Shown piece by piece: positions 2,691 through 20,000 of a DNA stretch of 20,000 nt; positions within the stretch are counted from its first letter, which is position 1, and each line of letters begins with the position of its first letter. The stretch comes from an uncultured virus (IMG/VR IMGVR_UViG_3300046692_000581) (taxonomy: Duplodnaviria > Heunggongvirae > Uroviricota > Caudoviricetes): the IMG/VR virus record IMGVR_UViG_3300046692_000581. One strand, given 5' to 3'. Below the pieces are notes generated by a model. That model ran no database searches, had not been told where the DNA came from, and saw nothing but the letters and a program-made list of their open reading frames with translations. The position numbers and the translations under genes are program-made.

Positions 2691-3011
2691 TTATCGAAAT
2701 TCGATCTCGCTGGCGTCAATCTTGGCAATGATTCCACCGTCAAGCATCCGAATCAATCGCCCATCATCAAACTCAACAATGATCTGATCGTAAGAGAATG
2801 AGCTGTGTTTAGCCCCTTTTTCCGCAGTCGACTTTGTCCATTTGTTGGACTCCATGATCGAAGTCAAGCTCCGCCAGGAATCTTCTTTTTTGCCGCAGTA
2901 ATCGCTCCAGTACATGACGGCATAAGCGGTTTTGACGCCTTTCCCCAGCAAGTCCTTCACGATGGCGGTAACAACGGGCGAACGCTTCGCCAAAAACAAG
3001 GAGTCATTCAT
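2691..3011 (-). CDS. hypothetical protein, 106 aa
   Basis: ORF overlapping the upstream HAD gene by ATGA (translational coupling). Confidence 0.75.
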   Translation of the reverse strand: MNDSLFLAKRSPVVTAIVKDLLGKGVKTAYAVMYWSDYCGKKEDSWRSLTSIMESNKWTKSTAEKGAKHSSFSYDQIIVEFDDGRLIRMLDGGIIAKIDASEIEFR

Positions 3012-3571
3012 GAATAGGTGCCTTCAGTCTCTTCTATTGGATTGGCTGCTACCAGTACGCGAGCTTCCTTCAATTTCATTTTTGCTGGAAAGCTCGTCCA
3101 GGCATCGAGGGTTTCGTCGTTGTAGATCCCACTCAAATGTTGAATGAACACGATTGCCTCAACAGGCAGCCCATCGTAATTGGCCTTGATATGATGAATG
3201 CCATTGACTTCAACGGGCTCGTCGTCGATGGCAAAATACACCTCGCCCTCTTCGTAGCCGTATTCATCCATCCAGGCTTGAATTTCTTTTGTGCGCCCAT
3301 TGCTTTGACCTTCGTCGCAATTTTGTGTGTAGCCAGTTCGCCATACGTGGTGAAAGGTCATGCCGCGCAGGCCGTATTTTCTTTCCAACAGCTCAGCGGC
3401 GTGTACGGGGTCTTTACAAGCCGACCTCACGGTTGATGCCAACACAAGGCGCACTCCCGGTACTTGCAGTAGATTATTGACGACTGCCACGGCAACAGGA
3501 TCGTATTTCAGGCTCGCCAAGCCGCTTCTCATACTTTGTATTGGGCCGTCGATATCCAAAAACACGATCAT
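3008..3571 (-). CDS. HAD-superfamily phosphatase (Swiss-Army-Knife RNA-repair-like HAD domain)
   Basis: Motif I FLDIDG, motif II LVLASTVR, GR..EI..W, motif IV YFAIDDE; AAGGA RBS. Confidence 0.8.
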   Translation of the reverse strand: MIVFLDIDGPIQSMRSGLASLKYDPVAVAVVNNLLQVPGVRLVLASTVRSACKDPVHAAELLERKYGLRGMTFHHVWRTGYTQNCDEGQSNGRTKEIQAWMDEYGYEEGEVYFAIDDEPVEVNGIHHIKANYDGLPVEAIVFIQHLSGIYNDETLDAWTSFPAKMKLKEARVLVAANPIEETEGTYS

Positions 3572-6570: not shown

Positions 6571-8379
6571 TTAATTGAAATACTTCAGCGGGACAATTAG
6601 TTCGGCCTTGTTGGCATCATGAACTGTTTCAAAGTTGTCCATTGAATATGTCATTACAACATCTTTCAGCCAGTTCTTGGCAGTGCGATAATCCATTCCC
6701 TTCTGAATCTTCATAACAATGGCTTGAAGGCTTAGCTCGTCAAGAGTGAATGAGATTTTATTGCTGACGTCCATTTCAGAAATGGCGTCTTTGTACAAAT
6801 TCCTAGCAATTATAGGTGTATCACTGGATTTTGGCTGTTCAATATCAAAGACTCGGATTCGTTTTTTAAGAGCTTCATCCAGGCCATTAAGGTGATTGGC
6901 CGCGAAAATCCAAGAAACCCTACTTAAATCAACCGGGCATCGTGTGCACCCATCTACGAAGTTTTTTGCTTCTGCGGGATCTAGAAGGCTATTCAGCGCG
7001 TTCTCTGCCGGAATGCCATTAGAGTAGGGTTTGTTTATCAGGCCATGGAACTCATCAATAAACACAATGGGATTGATTCTGGATGTGTCGTTGACGAGTT
7101 GTGTAACCATGCCTTGACTGGAGGAGTTCCAGGTTTTTTGCAAGCCGGTTAAAATGCTGCCACAAGTAATCTGAGCGGAATGAATCAAGAGCTTGGGCAG
7201 GCTTAAAGTGACCGCTAGCTTTATACAGAAAGCCGTTTTACCCGTGCCACTTGGCCCCTTTAAACAAATTGGAGGGAAATTAAATGGTTTCTGATTGATA
7301 AGCGAGAGTTTTGCTTGTTGCTCAATAAAGCCAAGAACTTCATGGAAGTTCGGAAATTCCAACTTCATGTTTGTTATTTTCTGTACTTTCTCCTTCGTCA
7401 TAAGTTCAAAGAAAATATCTTTGGCCTCATTTTCATCTTTGGTCCAATAGAATTTAAATGTCCCATACAGTTGATTTGTGTCCGAGACAATGTTTGTTTT
7501 AGATAATACTGGAGGGATGATGGGTGTTAATTCAGAGCTGTTATATTCAGCGATTAGTTGCTTTTCTAATTCGCTTAGTTGCGGATTGGCTTTCATCAAT
7601 TTGTTTTTGTACATATGAAGTACGAATAGGCCAGCCTGTGGTTTGTGGGTAATATTACTAATCATGGCTGAACAAAATAGGCTGGATAGAGCTGTATTGA
7701 ATTGATCTCTGTCGAAATAAAAATCCATGCCCATGCGGAGTCCAAAACTTTCATCATCTTGCGTGCAGATGGCGTAGGCTAGCATGAGAAGGTATGCGCT
7801 TGCACTGCCTTCAACGGAATGATAGAAAGTTTTCACTTTATCGTCATCAACGATAATCATGATAGTGGACTTGATATCTTTGGCGATGGCTATCTTGTTC
7901 GCCTGGGATTCTAGCTTGGCGATTTTGTAGGTAATGCATGCCGCCAGGAATGCGGCAGCAGTATCGGTGGTGGCAGTTGCTTTATATCCTTCAATGGATA
8001 ACTTAAAGAGAGTGCTTTCTACATGCTTATAATTTTGCTTGAGATTAGTAGGAAGCATCCAATCGAAGTGCTTGATAATAAAATTCTTGGCAATATTTTG
8101 TGGTCGCTGCCGTTGAGCTTTAATGCCGATATTGAAGTCATGTTTGATGATCTTTTCAGACATGGCCTTAAAATCATCGCGATAACCCCAGTTAGATGAG
8201 TCGTCATGATTTACTGAGGCGATATAAATATCATTAATGTCTAAAAACACTTGCTTTTGAGAGTTCTGCTCACTGGCAGTTGAGTTTTCAAGGGATTTTT
8301 CATCCATGACCAGCAGTGCCTCAACAAGCTTTTTGATGTCTTCACCCTCATTGGTAATTTCTTTATTATTTTCAGCCAT
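6571..8379 (-). CDS. Lon-like AAA+ ATPase lacking the protease domain, 602 aa
   Basis: PPICLKGPSGTGKT (Walker A), NPIVFIDE (Walker B), LLDP...F.D.....PVDLS.V.WIFAAN...L...LK.R, as in the Lon AAA module; no Ser-Lys protease domain follows. Confidence 0.85.
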   Translation of the reverse strand: MAENNKEITNEGEDIKKLVEALLVMDEKSLENSTASEQNSQKQVFLDINDIYIASVNHDDSSNWGYRDDFKAMSEKIIKHDFNIGIKAQRQRPQNIAKNFIIKHFDWMLPTNLKQNYKHVESTLFKLSIEGYKATATTDTAAAFLAACITYKIAKLESQANKIAIAKDIKSTIMIIVDDDKVKTFYHSVEGSASAYLLMLAYAICTQDDESFGLRMGMDFYFDRDQFNTALSSLFCSAMISNITHKPQAGLFVLHMYKNKLMKANPQLSELEKQLIAEYNSSELTPIIPPVLSKTNIVSDTNQLYGTFKFYWTKDENEAKDIFFELMTKEKVQKITNMKLEFPNFHEVLGFIEQQAKLSLINQKPFNFPPICLKGPSGTGKTAFCIKLAVTLSLPKLLIHSAQITCGSILTGLQKTWNSSSQGMVTQLVNDTSRINPIVFIDEFHGLINKPYSNGIPAENALNSLLDPAEAKNFVDGCTRCPVDLSRVSWIFAANHLNGLDEALKKRIRVFDIEQPKSSDTPIIARNLYKDAISEMDVSNKISFTLDELSLQAIVMKIQKGMDYRTAKNWLKDVVMTYSMDNFETVHDANKAELIVPLKYFN

Positions 8380-13499: not shown

Positions 13500-13655
13500 G
13501 GCTTAACCTTGTGGAAATTCGTCGAGGTGATCTGTGCGAGGCATCTATTATATTATCGAAAGATACACATTAAGTCGACAGTTGTCAATTTTGATGACAT
13601 ATATTATGGTTGAAACTTGGAGTGTGATATAATATCTGTAAAAAGGAGATCCTAC

Positions 13656-14645
13656 ATGAACCAGCCTTGTTTCAATCAGGCATTGTTGTGCGCAAGGGTT
13701 AAGGACCTGGACGGTCTGAAGCGTGCGCTTGAGCAATTCCCACCAGCTACTCAAGGGCCAAGAAATTTTTACGTATCCTCTGTCGTGACGATTGCGATGA
13801 GTGAGGGCTGGGCGCAAGGTCTGGATGCCGTATTGAGTATCAAGCCAACAACATTTCCAGCCTCAAATGAGTTTCCCAACGCCTCGATTCGCGATGCTTT
13901 GCCTGCTTTGATGAAATATAACGAACACTCGAACATGAAGCTTGAAGACACACTTGGTGTCTTGGCCAAACATGCGGGTAATATGGCCCCTACCTTGAAG
14001 GCAGACTTGGCCTTTGAAGTAGGCCCTTATATTCCTGAACAGCTGTATGTCAGATGTCGCTCCGTAGGGCTTCTGGATGCTTCCAAGACGACAAGCGTCA
14101 GCCACCGTCTGACGGGCGCAGGGCAAAGTAATACGGCCCATCCTGAGCGCGTGGCAACCTTTATTGCCGAAATGCCTGCCGAGACCAAGGCGAAGCTGTA
14201 CAACGCCTATTTTACCAATGACAAAGTGGTCAAGACATTTTCTACGAGTTTTCTGGCAGGCGTACTGAATGACCCCGCCTTTTTCGAAGATAAAAACGTC
14301 AACGAAAAGAAATTCAAGATTGATAAGGAATTTATCAATGACCCTGATTTTTCCGCAGTCCTTATCAACAAGGGGCTTCTAGATCAGGATCGTGCTTTTA
14401 CAGCTTTTTGGCGGAACCCAGGCCATGTGAAATTGGCGAATGAGCTGGTGGCAAATTTGAATAAAGGCACATCAGGTAGCCTGGACGTACAGAAAAATGA
14501 GGGGTGGTTACGTTTGGTCTCTGATTCTTTGTTGTCTTCAACAGATGCCACAACTCGACTCAACGCCGTCAAAGTTTTCAATCAGCTGAAAACAAATCTT
14601 GGTCTGCCAATTCAAGATAATCAGCTGTCACACAAAATTGCCTGA
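13656..14645 (+). CDS. hypothetical alpha-helical protein, paralogue A (329 aa)
   Basis: AAGGAG RBS before ATG 13656; extended -10 TGATATAAT at about 13625-13633; aligns with 14697..15521. Confidence 0.85.
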   Translation: MNQPCFNQALLCARVKDLDGLKRALEQFPPATQGPRNFYVSSVVTIAMSEGWAQGLDAVLSIKPTTFPASNEFPNASIRDALPALMKYNEHSNMKLEDTLGVLAKHAGNMAPTLKADLAFEVGPYIPEQLYVRCRSVGLLDASKTTSVSHRLTGAGQSNTAHPERVATFIAEMPAETKAKLYNAYFTNDKVVKTFSTSFLAGVLNDPAFFEDKNVNEKKFKIDKEFINDPDFSAVLINKGLLDQDRAFTAFWRNPGHVKLANELVANLNKGTSGSLDVQKNEGWLRLVSDSLLSSTDATTRLNAVKVFNQLKTNLGLPIQDNQLSHKIA

Positions 14646-14696: not shown

Positions 14697-15521
14697 ATGT
14701 ATATGTCAGGGATACCAAATATGCCGATTTTCAATGCGGAAGTCAGTGCAGAAAACAGAAACATGGATGGTCTTTACGAAGCATTGAAAGGCATTGATTC
14801 ATTGCCGGAACACGATAAATCGGCAGCAGTCTCGGGCCTAGTTCAAACGGCAATGATGGGCAAGTGGGTTGAGGGTGTTGCAGTGCTCCTTAACGTAAAG
14901 GGGGCTGCTTTTCCTGCGGAGAGTATTCGTGACGGCTTGGATAGTTTTGTCACCCCGTACAATGAGGCAAGGGGAGAAGATTTGTTGAGGGTGCTTTCGT
15001 ATCACCAGAACAAAATGCCGCCTTCATTGAAGGCCGAAATCGGCATTGAGTTTGGTCCTTACATGAGCAAATCTAACTGGGATCGGCACCGCGCAAGTGG
15101 CTTGATCAGCGCTGTGGATAATGAAAAAACCACTTTCAGAATGCACGGTGCTACGCCACTACAGGGAGCGTTGGCGCCAAGCCGCGTCGCCGAACTGATT
15201 ATGGAGATGCCTGAAAAAACACGCGCCCAAATTTATAATCGACAGTTGACGGCGGGCATTACAGGCGTTGCCCGTGAAGTGGGGCACTTTTCGGCTGAGT
15301 TCATGGCTAAGATCATGAAGGATGACGTCCTTTTCAATAATGACATGACTACTGAGAAGAAGTTTGTAGTCAACGCCAATCATTTAAAAAACCCGGAGTT
15401 TTTCATTGCCGCAGAAGAGCGTGGGATGCTGTCGGAAAAGGACAAGATCTTGACTAAAGGTCCTGGGCCGACGATGCGAAATGATTCAGGAATTAAATCA
15501 ATGTTGGGCCTAGGTTGTTAA
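14697..15521 (+). CDS. hypothetical alpha-helical protein, paralogue B (274 aa)
   Basis: Collinear similarity to 13656..14645; followed by a terminator. Confidence 0.85.
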   Translation: MYMSGIPNMPIFNAEVSAENRNMDGLYEALKGIDSLPEHDKSAAVSGLVQTAMMGKWVEGVAVLLNVKGAAFPAESIRDGLDSFVTPYNEARGEDLLRVLSYHQNKMPPSLKAEIGIEFGPYMSKSNWDRHRASGLISAVDNEKTTFRMHGATPLQGALAPSRVAELIMEMPEKTRAQIYNRQLTAGITGVAREVGHFSAEFMAKIMKDDVLFNNDMTTEKKFVVNANHLKNPEFFIAAEERGMLSEKDKILTKGPGPTMRNDSGIKSMLGLGC

Positions 15522-15544: not shown

Positions 15545-15692
15545 TGAAAAAATAAAGCCTCCGAAGTGGAGGCTTTATTCGTTTTACGTTACAGATCTAA
15601 TCTTTGGCAAGTTTCCCTGCGTATCCTGCTCACGGGCTAGGGGTGTTTCCACCGATATCGCAGACCCCTTTCGGGTCTCAGTTTCTGCGACA
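15545..15692 (-). ncRNA. putative novel structured small RNA (~145 nt)
   Basis: Promoter TTGCAA-17-TATCAT (15698-15726), four hairpins (three GAAA tetraloops), ends in the terminator; no ORF on this strand. Confidence 0.55.
15551..15579. terminator. bidirectional intrinsic terminator
   Basis: AATAAAGCCTCC-GAAGT-GGAGGCTTTATT. Confidence 0.85.
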
Positions 15693-15729
15693 ACTGGATG
15701 ATAAGTATGGCGCTAAGAATTTGCAATTA

Positions 15730-16266
15730 CTAGTTAACAGATTCCGGGGCTTTAAATACTTCGGAAGCGGCCTTGTAGCTTTTATACAGCTCGTTTGGCG
15801 ACGTTTCTTTCAGGTGATTGAGAATATGACTTCTGACTTGCTCGTCGGAAAGTTTACCCGGTCCTTCAACCAAAAGCGCTTTCGCGCAAAAGCCCAGGTG
15901 CTTGTCTTCCCAGTCCGCGATAATGATGTGAAGCGCTGGAGAAGCGTGCTTCTCTATGGGGGACTCCCAGATATTGGAAAGTTTGATCAAATTGACAAAA
16001 GAAAAGACCAAAAACTGCTGGCATACGCCTTTCAAAGCTTTTGCAGAATCAGTTTCATTGGTGAGTGCATCGTAATGAGCTGCTAGTTTTTCAACCAACT
16101 TAACAGGCTCAATATGACCAAATTTTTCACGAACTTCGTTACCAATTCTATGGTGAATTCGTTCATTTCCTTTGGTGTAAGCTTCGTAATTAAACTTAAG
16201 CTTCAGGCGCATGCCGGTCGGAACTGAATGGTTGTACATGAACACGTTTTCGCAAACCAGGGACAT
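15730..16266 (-). CDS. hypothetical protein, 178 aa
   Basis: GGAG RBS; promoter TTGGCA-16-TATAAT at 16294-16321. Confidence 0.75.
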   Translation of the reverse strand: MSLVCENVFMYNHSVPTGMRLKLKFNYEAYTKGNERIHHRIGNEVREKFGHIEPVKLVEKLAAHYDALTNETDSAKALKGVCQQFLVFSFVNLIKLSNIWESPIEKHASPALHIIIADWEDKHLGFCAKALLVEGPGKLSDEQVRSHILNHLKETSPNELYKSYKAASEVFKAPESVN

Positions 16267-16409: not shown

Positions 16410-17006
16410 TTAGATTAGACCTCGATAGGTCAAACTGACTCGGCCCTCACACTCTTGAGAGTGTTTTGGAATTCGATGCAAGTGAGTTTGTTGCATCCCA
16501 GGAGGCATATAAAAGAGCGAGCCGCTTTCCAACAAGATTTTTTGCGGTTCAGCCTTGTGGTCTTTAATGCCCATCCGCTCCAGATAATCTGGTCGAGGTT
16601 TTATCCAGATCTCTCGCTTTGCACCAAAGCTGTAGACCAAAATAGGTCGTTTAGGATCAATCGAGGGGCTGTCATCTGCATGCCATCCCAAGTGCTGACG
16701 AGGTCCCTCATAGCCATTGCAAAAGCAAGCTTCAAAGCGACTGCCAAACTCAGCTTCAGCCTGCAATTTAATGTCCCTAACGATTTTGTTCCACTCGGCC
16801 AGTGGCGAGACGGGAAAATACTGACGCTCCCCTCGCCCGCTGCCATAGGTATAAGGCAGTCCGGACTCGTTATAGAATGCTTCCCGGCGCGGCGCATCCT
16901 CCCGCTGCTCCCAATGGAGTTGTGTCCAGAGATGCTGAAAAACAGCCCCTGGGTTTTCAACTGCATTGGGGCGGTAAAACATGCCGGTGACGATTGCCGG
17001 ATCCAT
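16410..17006 (-). CDS. alkB: AlkB-family Fe(II)/2OG dioxygenase (ALKBH2/3-like)
   Basis: PRR...Y.Y, CFCNGY....HLGWHADD (HxD), SFGAKR, LESGSL..M....Q....HRIPK, RVSLTYR; ATG 17006 with AAGGA RBS. Confidence 0.9.
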   Translation of the reverse strand: MDPAIVTGMFYRPNAVENPGAVFQHLWTQLHWEQREDAPRREAFYNESGLPYTYGSGRGERQYFPVSPLAEWNKIVRDIKLQAEAEFGSRFEACFCNGYEGPRQHLGWHADDSPSIDPKRPILVYSFGAKREIWIKPRPDYLERMGIKDHKAEPQKILLESGSLFYMPPGMQQTHLHRIPKHSQECEGRVSLTYRGLI

Positions 17007-17032
17007 GGTGCATTCCTTTTGGGGTTGGTGGT

Positions 17033-17239
17033 TTACAAATAATCTTTTTGAGTCCAATTGCCGCTTTTCAGAGCAACGACAGCTTGTTCTTCTGTATTGA
17101 AATACTCAAGCGATTCACGGCTTACAGGACCGGATGAGTCGGCAGTGCCAATGTAGAATCCCCTGCCACTTTGCAGGACTTCAATGTGAAGTCTATATCC
17201 CGCTTCCAGAGCGAGGACGCCAAATTTTGTAGGTGACAT
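17033..17239 (-). CDS. small conserved mobile-element hypothetical protein, 68 aa
   Basis: EVLQS..GFYIGT....GPVSRES.EYF motif, a family I recall from ICEs, plasmids and phages; GGAG RBS; promoter TTGACA-17-GATAAT at 17267-17295. Confidence 0.8.
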   Translation of the reverse strand: MSPTKFGVLALEAGYRLHIEVLQSGRGFYIGTADSSGPVSRESLEYFNTEEQAVVALKSGNWTQKDYL

Positions 17240-18264: not shown

Positions 18265-18450
18265 CAACATGTCCTATCAAGTCGCCGTTCCTTAAAACTT
18301 GTTCAAACCTACTCATGTCTGAACAGACGCCACCCGAACGCGCTTTGGTGGCTTGATGCAACACGCTAGAACGGAATCGTTCGACAGGCCCCTGACGTGG
18401 CGAGAACGCATTCTCGTACGCGGGAGGCCTGCATCCAGGCGTGTTTCACC
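18265..18450 (-). ncRNA. putative TnpB omegaRNA (reRNA) scaffold, right end and guide
   Basis: Series of hairpins overlapping the tnpB 3' end, subterminal stem TGTTCAGAC/GTTTGAACA, then TTTAAGGAACGG; boundaries approximate. Confidence 0.55.
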
Positions 18451-20000
18451 CATGTCGCATAGTGCACACTCAGCTTTTTTAGGCACTGTTCACCTGTTCT
18501 GGCATCCGCTGGTGCCACAAAAGTCAATGTCTGCTGACGCACACGGCACGGGCTTGAGCGCGGAACGCGCTCCTTAAGTCCCATGCCACGACGACCAATC
18601 ACCCAGGCCGCAGCCTGATGAGTATTAAAATCGGTGTCCCGGTTGTATTTCAGCTTGCCGAGCAAGCTGGTGTAGGCCGGGTTGACTTGCACCAAGGCCA
18701 CGCCCTGCTTGAGGCACTGCATGGTCAGGCTTTGGCGAAACAGTCGGTAGCTCAGGCTGCTGAGCATGGCGTTGTAGCGCGCCTGACCCTGCTCACCTTT
18801 TTGCAGCGAGGATTTCTTTCGCGCAAAATCCAGTGATTCGATGACGATTGGTTTTTGTTCGGCGTTGGCCTGATCAACGATTTGAATGGCCAAGGCTTGC
18901 ATCGCGGTTTTGTTCTGCCGGGAAGTGGCCTGAAGGCGTGCATAAGGCCTGTCCACCAGCGACTGCTTGTGGCCCGAAGGATTCAGGTTTGCCACCGACA
19001 CGAACCCCGCATTGAAGTCGATGCCGAGCGCGCCCTTACTGAAGTCGGCGTCTGTGGCCTCAAACGGCACGCTGGTGCTGATCAGCACGCGCCAGCCTTT
19101 GCGGTCGCGCACGAAGCGGTAACTCAGGGCTTGGCCCAGTCCTTCAAGAAACTCGGATTCCTTGACCGAAGCGTCAAGTTCACCGGATTTTTTCTGCGCC
19201 AAAAAAGCTTTCTTACGTTCACTACGAAGCTGTTGGCGCGCATGCGCCTGTTCGATCACGTGGCCCTGATAAGAGAAGCTGATGCCGTCCAGATAGGCGT
19301 ATTTGCCATGCTCGGCGATCAAGGCTTCGGGCAAGCGCACTTGCAACAGCCACGTACCGTTTTCACCGGGCAGCAGTACGCAGCCTTGACAGCCGCCGTT
19401 TTCATCGCTGGAGCCGAGCACGAAAAATTGATTGGAGCGTGAAGCCTGCCAGTCGTTTTTCCAGGCCTGATGATCCGCGTAGTCGTTTTTGGCCAAGTGA
19501 TGTTGCGCGTTGAACAGCCGCTTGGAGCCGAAGCAAATTGCAGTGGTTTTACTCTTGATGCGTTCAGCCAGCTGCTTGGCTTCACTATGCAGATGCTGGA
19601 TCTTGCTGCGCATCCCTGGCAGGGAGCGCCAGAGTTTTTGAGCACGGTCCTTTTGACCTTTCGCATCCAGCACCTGAGCCTTTTCGCGGTTGGCGATCAG
19701 GCGCTTTTCCAGGCGCTCAGCTTTCTGCTGGGCTTGCGTCAGGTAGCCGGGCAGGTTGCCGATCTGCGACTGCACCATGCCTTCAACACTGACCTTCACG
19801 GCGTTAAACTGCCGTGCCGTCAGGCCATGCTCGCGAGAAAACACGGGCTTCTTGGGCGCCTCGCCCTTTTTTGCGGCACTGTAGTAATGGCGTGTGGAAC
19901 GAGAAAACAGTGCGGCATACGCCTTCAGCGCCCGATCAGCGTCATCGGTCAGGGACCGAGGCAGGCGCGTTTCGAGGGTCAAAGGCTGAAGTGTTATCAT
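18285..20000 (-). mobile_element. IS200/IS605-family element (right part), GC-richer than its flanks
   Basis: tnpB-related gene plus subterminal hairpin; left end and any tnpA lie outside the window. Confidence 0.75.
18366..20000 (-). CDS. tnpB: IS200/IS605 TnpB-related RNA-guided RuvC protein (544 aa; the start may extend beyond the window)
   Basis: RuvC-I ALGIDFN, RuvC-II IVIESLDF, VNPAYTS, RuvC-III region HQAAAWVIGRR; no CxxC zinc finger. Confidence 0.88.
   Translation of the reverse strand: MITLQPLTLETRLPRSLTDDADRALKAYAALFSRSTRHYYSAAKKGEAPKKPVFSREHGLTARQFNAVKVSVEGMVQSQIGNLPGYLTQAQQKAERLEKRLIANREKAQVLDAKGQKDRAQKLWRSLPGMRSKIQHLHSEAKQLAERIKSKTTAICFGSKRLFNAQHHLAKNDYADHQAWKNDWQASRSNQFFVLGSSDENGGCQGCVLLPGENGTWLLQVRLPEALIAEHGKYAYLDGISFSYQGHVIEQAHARQQLRSERKKAFLAQKKSGELDASVKESEFLEGLGQALSYRFVRDRKGWRVLISTSVPFEATDADFSKGALGIDFNAGFVSVANLNPSGHKQSLVDRPYARLQATSRQNKTAMQALAIQIVDQANAEQKPIVIESLDFARKKSSLQKGEQGQARYNAMLSSLSYRLFRQSLTMQCLKQGVALVQVNPAYTSLLGKLKYNRDTDFNTHQAAAWVIGRRGMGLKERVPRSSPCRVRQQTLTFVAPADARTGEQCLKKLSVHYATWVKHAWMQASRVRECVLATSGACRTIPF

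Follow-up and report, generated by a model that had tools for sequence, protein, structure and literature searches.

A predicted small RNA gene of the SraL/RyjA family, from a divergent mobile-element-associated branch, in a 20-kb sequence of an uncultured virus

SraL is described, in passages of two papers, as a conserved enterobacterial ProQ-dependent small RNA (sRNA) (PMC9977716, PMC3753932), and a passage of a third puts its share of ProQ ligands at ~50% or above in stationary-phase Salmonella (PMC8136791). ProQ-specific RNAs are marked, according to the relevant part of a further paper, by an A-rich 5' flank that is paired to the U-tail (PMC7367173). In the published passages on SraL that were available, no plasmid-borne relative is described.

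A 20,000-nt stretch of DNA from an uncultured virus (IMG/VR record IMGVR_UViG_3300046692_000581), the whole of which is called the window here, carries on its minus strand an RNA gene that we compared with these systems. A preliminary description, made from the letters of the sequence, had proposed a stand-alone-looking structured noncoding RNA gene at 15545-15726, with a promoter-like site, a terminator, a 5' helix (P1) and three GAAA-capped stems. This picture was borne out, and the minus-strand sequence was present exactly as it had been written. We consider it likely, with a probability of roughly 80%, that the gene encodes a ~145-nt sRNA of the SraL/RyjA family and represents a divergent, mobile-element-associated branch of it.

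Extent and folding of the RNA

The predicted transcript and its surroundings are listed in Table 1. The 5' end was set at 15691 from the promoter geometry and the model boundary, and the 3' end was placed within the U-run. No minus-strand ORF of at least 40 aa was found in 15545-15726, in agreement with the preliminary description. The folding energy of a 151-nt stretch was -52.3 kcal/mol, compared with -36.3 +/- 3.8 for shuffled sequences (z = -4.18), and none of the 200 shuffles folded as stably. Three GAAA-capped stems of at least 3 bp were clustered inside 58 nt; across the whole 20 kb, such stems numbered 14 on the minus strand and 6 on the plus strand.

Table 1. Predicted features of the RNA gene and its neighbors, in window coordinates
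Feature	Coordinates	Strand	Basis or remarks
Predicted sRNA transcript	15545..15691	(-)	~143-147 nt; Rfam RF01408 41.0 bits, R1 34.6, R3 39.6 (body)
-35-like hexamer TTGCAA	15721..15726	(-)	Promoter scan
-10-like hexamer TATCAT	15698..15703	(-)	Promoter scan
5' domain, P1 = GUCGCAGA (15691-15684) / UCUGCGAU (15664-15657)	15657..15691	(-)	Model pairs, comparison
Junction domain, closing P2 = AUC (15656-15654) / GAU (15602-15600)	15600..15656	(-)	Covarying closing trinucleotides
Hairpin Ha, GGUG-GAAA-CACC	15642..15653	(-)	Pair probability 0.98-0.99
Hairpin Hb, CCU(A)GC-CCGUGA-GCAGG, then AUA	15625..15641	(-)	Pair probability 0.93-0.95
Extra hairpin Hc, GCAGG-GAAA-CUUGC	15607..15620	(-)	Pair probability 0.96
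Intrinsic terminator, 13-bp stem	15547..15580	(-)	Terminator scan, both strands
178-aa orphan gene, upstream of RNA	15730..16266	(-)	Same strand; own promoter-like site 16321-16294, 11/12
274-aa orphan gene, convergent with RNA	14697..15521	(+)	Tandem paralogue of 13617-14645

The three hairpins Ha, Hb and Hc and the terminator hairpin had all been claimed in the preliminary description, and each was predicted with pair probabilities above 0.93. The proposed 5' helix GUCGCAGA/UCUGCGAU was supported by comparison with relatives, but thermodynamically P1 was only ~5% populated (and P2 ~2%); the best fold with this helix reached -49.7 versus -52.5 for the MFE, which favors AGACCC-GAAAG-GGGUCU. 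P1 encloses CCC-GAAA-GGG (15675-15666), whose counterpart in P. fragi, at the same place, is UCCC-GAAA-GGGA. All seven P1 model pairs were formed in the window RNA, and in five both partners differ from those in E. coli SraL. P2 was closed in the MFE of just three of eight isolated junction domains. An alternative closure of the junction by UAUC/GAUA was unsupported, because GGAUA is invariant in the relatives while the 5' strand varies; that strand covaries instead with a trinucleotide further downstream (AUC/GAU).

The SraL homologue of Ha is GGG-GAAA-CCC, whose middle G-C pair has become U-A in the window RNA, and no block is better conserved than Hb among the plasmid-type relatives described below. 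Hc is found neither in chromosomal SraL nor in the plasmid RNAs of enterobacteria and Vibrio, and the two Pseudomonas plasmid RNAs contain CGACG-GCAA-CGUCG at the same site. A GNRA-capped Hc is therefore common to the window and Pseudomonas plasmid RNAs, which points to a four-way junction. The strong terminator was confirmed as a 13-pair hairpin (15580-15550) followed by a T-run, in the lower part of which the A-rich 5' flank GAAUAAAG is paired with the start of the U-tail. It is predicted to be bidirectional and faces the convergent gene ending at 15521.

Several kinds of repeated element were considered for the locus. No second copy of the RNA was found elsewhere in the window by blastn, and an insertion sequence end was ruled out for this single-copy RNA. 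A TnpB guide RNA was also ruled out, since four ORFs and 2.7 kb separate the locus from the end of the TnpB-related gene. The 5' 35 nt resembled a CRISPR repeat (RF01346) with only 14.8 bits, compared with a gathering score of 38 (E = 0.31), and a CRISPR array was rejected, these 35 nt being single-copy in the window with up to 3 mismatches allowed and blastn yielding no further copy. No replication or transfer gene was detected among the 21 window ORFs scanned, and the longest contig given for the neighboring protein in the protein database measures 876,603 bases. Contigs from two rhizosphere metagenome DNA runs were identical to the window wherever they overlapped it, and therefore provided no variation to use.

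Membership in the SraL family and its plasmid-borne relatives

The preliminary description had not recognized the RNA as belonging to a known family, and in this respect it was contradicted. The Rfam sraL model (RF01408) matched over its positions 1-142 with 41.0 bits (E = 4e-6; gathering score 39) and was the sole Rfam model to reach its gathering score within the 20-kb window. The margin was 2 bits, with ~21 of the 41 bits coming from the terminator, and enterobacterial SraL genes score 139-165 bits with the same model. By itself, the terminator scored 20-26 bits with the unrelated Rfam families Phe_leader, ohsC and rimP, indicating that it is not family-specific; since it supplies about half of the sraL score, the body was tested separately. 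Without the terminator, sraL was the best of 4227 families, at 19.9 bits (E = 0.0068).

Two further covariance models were applied. R1, made from four chromosomal SraL genes, gave 34.6 bits (E = 1e-7) on the window RNA, the next best score in the window being 14.8, and its sequence-only version gave 13.8 bits (E = 0.0013), so that structure contributes ~21 bits. R3, a terminator-free model made from seven plasmid RNAs only, with the window RNA left out, gave 39.6 bits (E = 4.3e-7) against a best noise score of 13.8 in 45.5 kb; chromosomal SraL genes scored 41-50 and the Pseudomonas RNAs 66.2. The R3 result was the decisive test of family membership.

The relatives came to light through a weak similarity. 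BLAST of a 1-kb region against plasmids and phages, and of the RNA against E. coli genomes, yielded no match at default settings or at E <= 1. When the RNA-only search was relaxed to E <= 10, a weak match (E = 1) led to an RNA on a 3.4-kb E. coli plasmid that scored 89.1 bits with Rfam sraL, and BLAST from this RNA retrieved 40 plasmid records. Unannotated SraL relatives were present on plasmids of Escherichia, Klebsiella, Dickeya, Vibrio and Pseudomonas, with sraL scores of 85-89 bits on E. coli plasmids, 59-63 in Vibrio and 28 in P. fragi. Examples are E. coli NZ_CP092640.1, Vibrio sp. 0908 p0908, P. fragi pAd12 and P. silesiensis pPL2. Among 5426 complete E. coli genomes, 20 contained the plasmid-type RNA, which was plasmid-located every time, and none of the 14 records listed, out of 21, annotated the RNA. 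The block CCYAGCCNGUGAGCRGGAUA was nearly invariant in all ten aligned sequences, including the window.

A convergent gene of ~160 aa was found at the RNA 3' end in all nine plasmid loci examined, with mutual homology of these genes checked in five of the nine, and its protein matched NCBIfam YjaZ weakly (21-25 bits). This gene was not found in the window, either by tblastn (best E = 0.43) or by hmmsearch of 247 six-frame ORFs. Viral contigs yielded nothing in a pattern scan or in scans with the two neighboring proteins, and a second sequence of the exact window subtype from a related organism was not found.

We then compared base pairs across the family. The window RNA formed 28 of the 38 model pairs; compared with E. 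coli SraL, both bases had changed in 11 of these, a single base in 1 and neither in 16, and the remainder comprised 1 non-pair and 9 gapped pairs. In an alignment of 12 distinct family sequences, which was fitted to the model, 95.7% of cells paired and both-side changes occurred in 14 of 23 pairs, a count that was matched by none of 500 shuffles and stood against at most 3 in slid controls. P1 had both-side changes in seven of its eight pairs across these sequences. The closing trinucleotides of P2 were AUC/GAU in the window, GCC/GGC in E. coli and Dickeya plasmids, GUC/GGC in Vibrio, UUC/GAA in Pseudomonas and GUC/GAC in chromosomal SraL, with four forms of P2 covariation. As judged from the aligned sequences, compensatory changes have preserved P1, P2, Ha and Hb. 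The analysis established family membership, a conserved architecture and compensatory changes, and the sequence comparisons identify the locus as a predicted SraL-family sRNA gene, not a new RNA class.

If this were instead a structured RNA of a new kind with no relation to SraL, for instance a ribozyme or a motif that binds protein, its matches to sraL would be chance effects of the GAAA hairpin and a generic terminator. The Rfam score is indeed borderline, weak sraL matches also occur in the unrelated genomes of B. subtilis and Caulobacter (E <= 0.001 per genome), and in primary sequence the body resembles chromosomal SraL only modestly (z 2.2-5.5, falling to z 0.3-3.2 without the GAAA hairpin). 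This explanation, already disfavored, appears very unlikely in view of the terminator-free plasmid model and its low noise, the near-identical 20-nt block in the relatives, the extra hairpin at an insertion point identical to that of Pseudomonas, the covariation of P2 and a noise level of at most 18.8 bits in two whole genomes. Rfam ribozyme families did not match even at E up to 10, and the ribozyme hypothesis of the preliminary description was unsupported. A sponge titrating CsrA/RsmA, suggested there because of three GGA motifs, is more improbable still, to the point of being barely credible. The motifs do lie close to hairpin loops, but they are partly buried, with the G residues of each GGA within a predicted stem; the CsrB, CsrC, RsmX, RsmY and RsmZ models were unmatched even at E up to 10, and the GGA of Ha is not kept as a loop motif in the relatives, whose loops are CAAA, UCACA, UUAG and GUAAA.

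Origin of the transcript and the neighboring genes

The promoter proposed in the preliminary description was only partly substantiated: TTGCAA-17-TATCAT was found at 15726-15698 with 9 of 12 matches, but it is weak evidence, not above chance, the surrounding 1.2 kb containing 3 promoter-like sites versus 1.5 +/- 1.2 in shuffles. The TTGCAA hexamer lies 4 nt past the stop codon (15730-15732) of the 178-aa gene, and a TGGCGA/TGGCAA hexamer is similarly spaced in enterobacterial sraL upstream regions, going by a count made for Citrobacter alone. Overlapping TATCAT is the motif GCCATACTTA (15711-15702), which was set against the sigma-S consensus with an RpoS-dependent promoter in view. It resembles the Klebsiella sraL -10 region at 9 of 10 positions, a likeness that is not significant, being equaled by 387 of 2000 shuffles. 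G15691, on which position 1 of the sraL model match also falls, comes 7 nt after the end of TATCAT. We propose that the sRNA would be transcribed from this promoter-like site, which immediately follows the stop codon of the 178-aa gene, and that read-through from the gene may also yield it.

Alternatively, the RNA might be a structured 3' untranslated region of the 178-aa gene without a promoter of its own, either serving only in mRNA stabilization or termination or being processed to release a 3'UTR-derived sRNA. The lack of a detected terminator between the stop codon and the RNA and the strong promoter-like site of the 178-aa gene fit this arrangement, as does the internal site with its 9 of 12 matches, of a kind not enriched over shuffles. 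We nevertheless regard it as unlikely, given the coincidence of the predicted start with position 1 of the family models and the AT-rich -10-like sequence that precedes the 5' end in every aligned relative. Moreover, the elements upstream of the relatives' RNA vary (RNAI, mobF or a 115-aa ORF), which suggests that the RNA is the conserved unit rather than the tail of a particular mRNA. Such an origin would be compatible with SraL-family ancestry and would alter how the RNA is made. Another alternative is action in cis on a neighboring protein gene rather than on distant targets, through antisense overlap at the 3' end or a shared terminator with the convergent gene, or as an RNA partner of the 178-aa protein. 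Wherever the RNA was encountered, a protein gene converges on it, the 3' end of that gene lying against the RNA: soxR on chromosomes, the ~160-aa gene in all nine plasmid loci and the 274-aa gene in the window. However, the convergent partner proteins are unrelated to one another, the overlap is limited to the terminator, and complementarity to start regions in the window was not above chance. The 178-aa protein, proposed as a partner in the preliminary description, is unrelated to the ~160-aa plasmid partner and was beside the RNA in none of the nine relatives' loci examined, which argues against that role. We consider cis action quite unlikely, and prefer the SraL-like trans-acting sRNA transcribed from its own site.

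The 178-aa protein had an AlphaFold pLDDT of 40.1 and matched nothing in Atlas, PHROGs, PADLOC or NCBIfam. No loci of its relatives were found in viral contigs, and metagenome contigs contained no match to the protein or to an alignment of its three homologues. A 42-residue match in a Pyrinomonadaceae MAG was spurious.

Likely mode of action and comparison with known systems

By analogy with SraL, the window RNA is probably a base-pairing regulator of the ProQ/Hfq type. It would act in trans, dependent on a FinO/ProQ-type or Hfq chaperone that would bind its terminator region, and pairing between A-rich flank and U-tail is visible in its sequence. It probably has different targets from SraL: in place of the single-stranded ACCGGAAC stretch that is conserved in the 5' domain, the window RNA has ACUGAGAC. 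Within the window, the best target duplex energy equaled the shuffled null, and the longest exact complement was 11 nt versus 9-14 in the null. With regard to the SraL seed, RNAduplex on the E. coli tig and rho leaders gave implausibly long duplexes only.

Taken together, the findings could also be read the other way around, with SraL as no more than the chromosomal branch of a mobile RNA family of greater breadth, although we hold this to be doubtful. Such a family may have spread on plasmids and islands through Enterobacterales, Vibrionaceae and Pseudomonas as well as one or more uncultured bacteria of the rhizosphere. Its conserved junction core (four- or three-way), in which Hb is invariant and the loops are of the GNRA type, may be a folded module for docking protein or RNA that has its own function. 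The function of the core could then lie in plasmid maintenance or with the YjaZ-like gene, instead of its being a mere seed scaffold, and the window RNA would be a copy that lost its usual protein partner.

Under the preferred reading, as an SraL-family sRNA, the practical outcome for the window is annotation of an SraL-family sRNA gene. The family extends well beyond Enterobacteriaceae, onto plasmids, which bears on the origin and spread of core-genome sRNAs. The four-way-junction form is barely detected by the Rfam model (window 41 and Pseudomonas 28 bits versus a cut-off of 39), and the natural variation, with its covarying P2 and invariant Hb, is useful for dissecting SraL structure and ProQ recognition.

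The window host is not close to E. coli or Klebsiella, its ChaA-like protein being nearer to alphaproteobacterial homologues (57-60% identity). SraL adjoins soxR tail-to-tail, whereas the neighbors of the window RNA are orphan genes without a MerR/SoxR domain; the plasmid relatives at 85-89 bits also lack soxR, indicating that soxR adjacency is a hallmark of the chromosomal orthologue rather than of the family. Inside P1, the window RNA lacks the two small hairpins of enterobacterial SraL (six of six pairs gapped), which are replaced, as in the plasmid relatives, by a single hairpin, here CCC-GAAA-GGG. Unlike SraL, the window RNA carries the extra Hc, and its Hb differs in sequence. With the plasmid relatives it has a covarying P2 in common, and with the Pseudomonas plasmid RNAs also the extra GNRA hairpin and the four-way junction, whereas it has ACUGAGA where the plasmid RNAs have an invariant single-stranded ACCGGAA in the 5' domain. 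Other ProQ/FinO-class sRNAs, such as RaiZ, FinP and RepX, resemble it in having a highly structured body and a U-tail partly paired to an A-rich flank, without sequence or model similarity in Rfam scans. SraL itself (E. coli K-12 ryjA b4459) is 141 nt, similar in length to the window RNA. The two have in common the helix order P1, P2, Ha (with a GAAA loop) and Hb, the GAYRUCGG and GGAUA motifs, a terminator flanked on its 5' side by A-rich sequence, and a convergent protein gene that shares this terminator.

A structured RNA on the minus strand of the window

The preliminary description of a structured RNA with a promoter-like site, a terminator and GAAA-capped stems was borne out, and the observation in the window is real. 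The 151-nt stretch had a folding energy of -52.3 kcal/mol, compared with -36.3 ± 3.8 kcal/mol for shuffled sequences (z -4.18), and none of the 200 shuffles was as stable. Three GAAA-capped stems lay inside 58 nt, the totals over the 20 kb being 14 on the minus strand and 6 on the plus strand, and no further copy of the element was found across the window. Thermodynamic prediction gave pair probabilities above 0.93 for GGUG-GAAA-CACC, CCU(A)GC/GCAGG, GCAGG-GAAA-CUUGC and the terminator. The promoter-like site showed 9/12 matches, and such sites were no more frequent than in shuffled DNA; it is the weakest element of the confirmed observation. With no terminator between the two, the mRNA of the 178-aa gene may also yield the RNA as its 3' end. 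A CRISPR repeat match (RF01346) to the 5' 35 nt (14.8 bits, E 0.31; cut-off 38), present as a single copy, was judged to be due to chance.

Coordinates of features in the window and in plasmid loci of SraL relatives (L-numbers; each locus in its own numbering)
Feature	Position	Strand	Remark
178-aa ORF	16266-15730	-	Stop codon TAG
Promoter-like site, TTGCAA-17 nt-TATCAT	15726-15698	-	Begins four bases past the 178-aa ORF stop
Terminator hairpin, 13 pairs, then T-run	15580-15550	-	3' of the sequence quoted in the preliminary description
sraL (RF01408) match	15549-15691	-	Full model
CRISPR repeat (RF01346) match	15657-15691	-	Rejected
Tandem paralogous orphan genes	13617-14645, 14697-15521	+
AlkB-like 2OG-Fe(II) oxygenase	16410-17057	-
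TnpB-related ORF	18366-20000	-	Reaches window end
HAD_SAK_2 domain protein	3008-3571	-	'Swiss Army Knife RNA repair'
AAA/Lon-like ATPase	6571-8379	-	602 aa
Plasmid RNA	L009:380-514, L015:701-835, L016:701-834, L017:701-834, L018:701-835
Plasmid RNA	L010:2001-2139, L011:2001-2136, L012:2001-2152, L013:2001-2152
Convergent ~160-aa protein	L014:942-1958, L010:2149-2634, L011:2146-2631, L012:2164-2652, L013:2164-2610

Relationship to the SraL family

The sole gathering-level Rfam match in the window was sraL (41.0 bits, E 4e-6; cut-off 39), which places the RNA in a known family, contrary to the preliminary description. The match was initially suspect because it was far lower than those of genuine SraL genes (E. 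coli 153, Salmonella 165, Citrobacter 149 and Klebsiella 139 bits), because unrelated families that carry a terminator (Phe_leader, ohsC and rimP among them) matched the terminator by itself at 20-26 bits, and because unrelated genomes also gave weak sraL matches. Without the terminator, sraL was still top among 4227 families, with only 19.9 bits (E 0.0068). With a model built on the SraL genes of four chromosomes, the window RNA scored 34.6 bits and the next best match in the window 14.8 bits; the sequence-only twin of this model scored the RNA at 13.8 bits. Plain sequence similarity of the RNA body (the RNA minus its terminator) to chromosomal SraL gave z values of 2.2-5.5, or 0.3-3.2 upon removal of the GAAA hairpin, suggesting that this modest similarity rests largely on that hairpin. 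Before plasmid relatives came in, kinship with SraL would have had about even odds.

BLAST with the RNA alone (E<=10) returned chance-level matches (E=1, 79% over 53 nt) on five small enterobacterial plasmids. On one of these, the E. coli plasmid NZ_CP092640.1 (3367 bp), Rfam detected RNAI and, directly behind it, sraL at 89.1 bits, an arrangement found in small ColE1-type plasmids. With the NZ_CP092640.1 RNA as query, BLAST retrieved 40 plasmid records from PLSDB (Escherichia 19, Klebsiella 6, Vibrio 5, Enterobacter 3, Citrobacter 2, Pseudomonas 2, and Salmonella, Serratia and Dickeya 1 each). The plasmid-type RNA occurred in 20 of the 5426 complete E. coli genomes in RefSeq, at 24 places, all on plasmids. 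Of 21 records, 14 were listed; in these the match lay over no annotated feature in 12, over the neighbouring hypothetical protein in 2 and over an RNA in none. RF01408 scores formed a gradient: 85-89 bits for E. coli plasmids, 59-63 bits for Vibrio plasmids, 41 bits for the window and 28 bits, under the cut-off, for a P. fragi plasmid.

R3, a terminator-free covariance model of 91 positions and 23 pairs, was built from seven plasmid RNAs (five enterobacterial, two Vibrio), with the window excluded, and searched against 45.5 kb with filters off. It scored the Pseudomonas plasmid RNAs at 66.2 bits, chromosomal SraL of Salmonella, Citrobacter and Klebsiella at 49-50 bits, that of E. coli at 41.1 bits, the window RNA at 39.6 bits (E 4.3e-7) and the best noise at 13.8 bits. 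In its body, therefore, the window RNA stands about as near to the plasmid RNAs as does the SraL of E. coli, and the kinship is independent of the terminator and of the Rfam threshold. Judged from sequence and predicted structure, the window holds a putative sRNA gene, divergent within the SraL family and of a four-way-junction, probably mobile subtype; it is no new RNA class.

In a MAFFT alignment of ten sequences, CCYAGCCNGUGAGCRGGAUA (hairpin Hb and its flank) was nearly invariant, and an extra GNRA-capped hairpin straight after it occurred only in the window RNA (GCAGG-GAAA-CUUGC) and two Pseudomonas RNAs (CGACG-GCAA-CGUCG). P2, the 3-bp helix closing the junction, has covarying strands: AUC/GAU in the window, GCC/GGC in E. 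coli and Dickeya plasmids, GUC/GGC in Vibrio, UUC/GAA in Pseudomonas and GUC/GAC in chromosomal SraL. Variation in the supposed partner of GGAUA, itself invariant, contradicts the UAUC/GAUA closure proposed earlier. By thermodynamics alone, the 5'-domain helix P1 and P2 had probabilities of ~5% and ~2% in the window RNA, and the P1-enforced fold lay 2.8 kcal/mol above the MFE; neither helix is favoured by thermodynamics, and it is the comparative evidence that supports both as predicted pairings. When 12 distinct sequences were placed on R3, 95.7% of cells paired and 14 of the 23 pairs showed both-side changes (shuffles as high, 0/500; slid controls, <=3), in an alignment that was fitted to R3, is biased towards it and puts P2 in the wrong place in both subtypes with the extra hairpin, Hc.

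Genomic setting

In the chromosomal loci examined, the SraL RNA lies tail-to-tail with soxR. A 453-kb Salmonella IncHI2A conjugative plasmid (NZ_OM317741.1, 182602-183342) carries a chromosomal-type soxR-sraL segment (sraL 165 bits), indicating that the chromosomal form can be mobilised too. In all nine plasmid loci examined, the RNA adjoins the 3' end of a convergent ~160-aa gene (148-164 aa in eight, 109 aa in one), which in small E. coli plasmids is preceded by a 172-aa ORF. The encoded proteins are 30-36% identical between genera (five of nine aligned), and share invariant motifs (H, P, FG.H.FTD.K, RY and AY..WG). They belong to no Pfam family, and their NCBIfam match to YjaZ is weak (21-25 bits; cut-off 324). 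The RNA and this protein look like a conserved RNA-protein module, and the unannotated plasmid branch with its protein neighbour is the more interesting by-product. The literature excerpts retrieved contain no description of such a branch; the Rfam full alignment may already list these copies.

The plasmid-type gene was absent from the window, where the RNA is flanked by a convergent 274-aa orphan and the upstream 178-aa orphan, both unrelated to the plasmid partner; a search of 5.8 billion sequences gave the 178-aa protein only three homologues other than itself. No family in Pfam, NCBIfam, PHROG or PADLOC matched the tandem paralogues (33% identity over 263 residues, E 8e-41). The AlkB-like gene matched a phage 'alkylated DNA repair' PHROG (E 9e-55) and, over a short stretch, a P. 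silesiensis megaplasmid (70.8% nucleotide identity). The best relative of the 544-aa TnpB-related protein (IS200/IS605 accessory, Cas12f-like TNB), on a Pseudomonas megaplasmid, was 40% identical. Among 72,556 plasmids, the only nucleotide similarity to the window lay in short stretches of TnpB and AlkB-like sequence on Pseudomonas megaplasmids. The HAD_SAK_2 protein and the ATPase sit among numerous orphan ORFs, and the region has the look of an accessory island. The window sequence was present in rhizosphere metagenome runs. Its ChaA-like protein has its closest homologues in alphaproteobacteria (57-60% identity), so the host is not closely related to E. coli.

Proposed mode of action and comparison with SraL

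SraL is RpoS-dependent; by base-pairing, it represses tig and guards the rho leader against premature termination (PMC3753932; PMC6582626). [quoted passage not shown] ProQ-specific RNAs are described as having an A-rich stretch 5' of the terminator paired to the U-tail (PMC7367173). The window RNA has the same feature, GAAUAAAG being paired with CUUUAUUU. On these grounds, it would be expected to act as a chaperone-dependent regulator that base-pairs in trans, which we infer is probably its mode of action. No target was found within the window.

When compared with E. coli SraL (38 model pairs), 28 pairs form in the window RNA, 1 is a non-pair and 9 are gapped, namely those of the two small hairpins at the 5' end and the inner pairs of Hb. 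Among the 28 formed pairs, 11 are changed on both sides, 1 on one side and 16 are unchanged; in P1, 5 of 7 pairs are changed on both sides. The 5'-domain single strand reads ACUGAGA in the window RNA, compared with ACCGGAA, invariant in the other plasmid-type members of the ten-sequence alignment; the targets of the window RNA probably differ from those of SraL.
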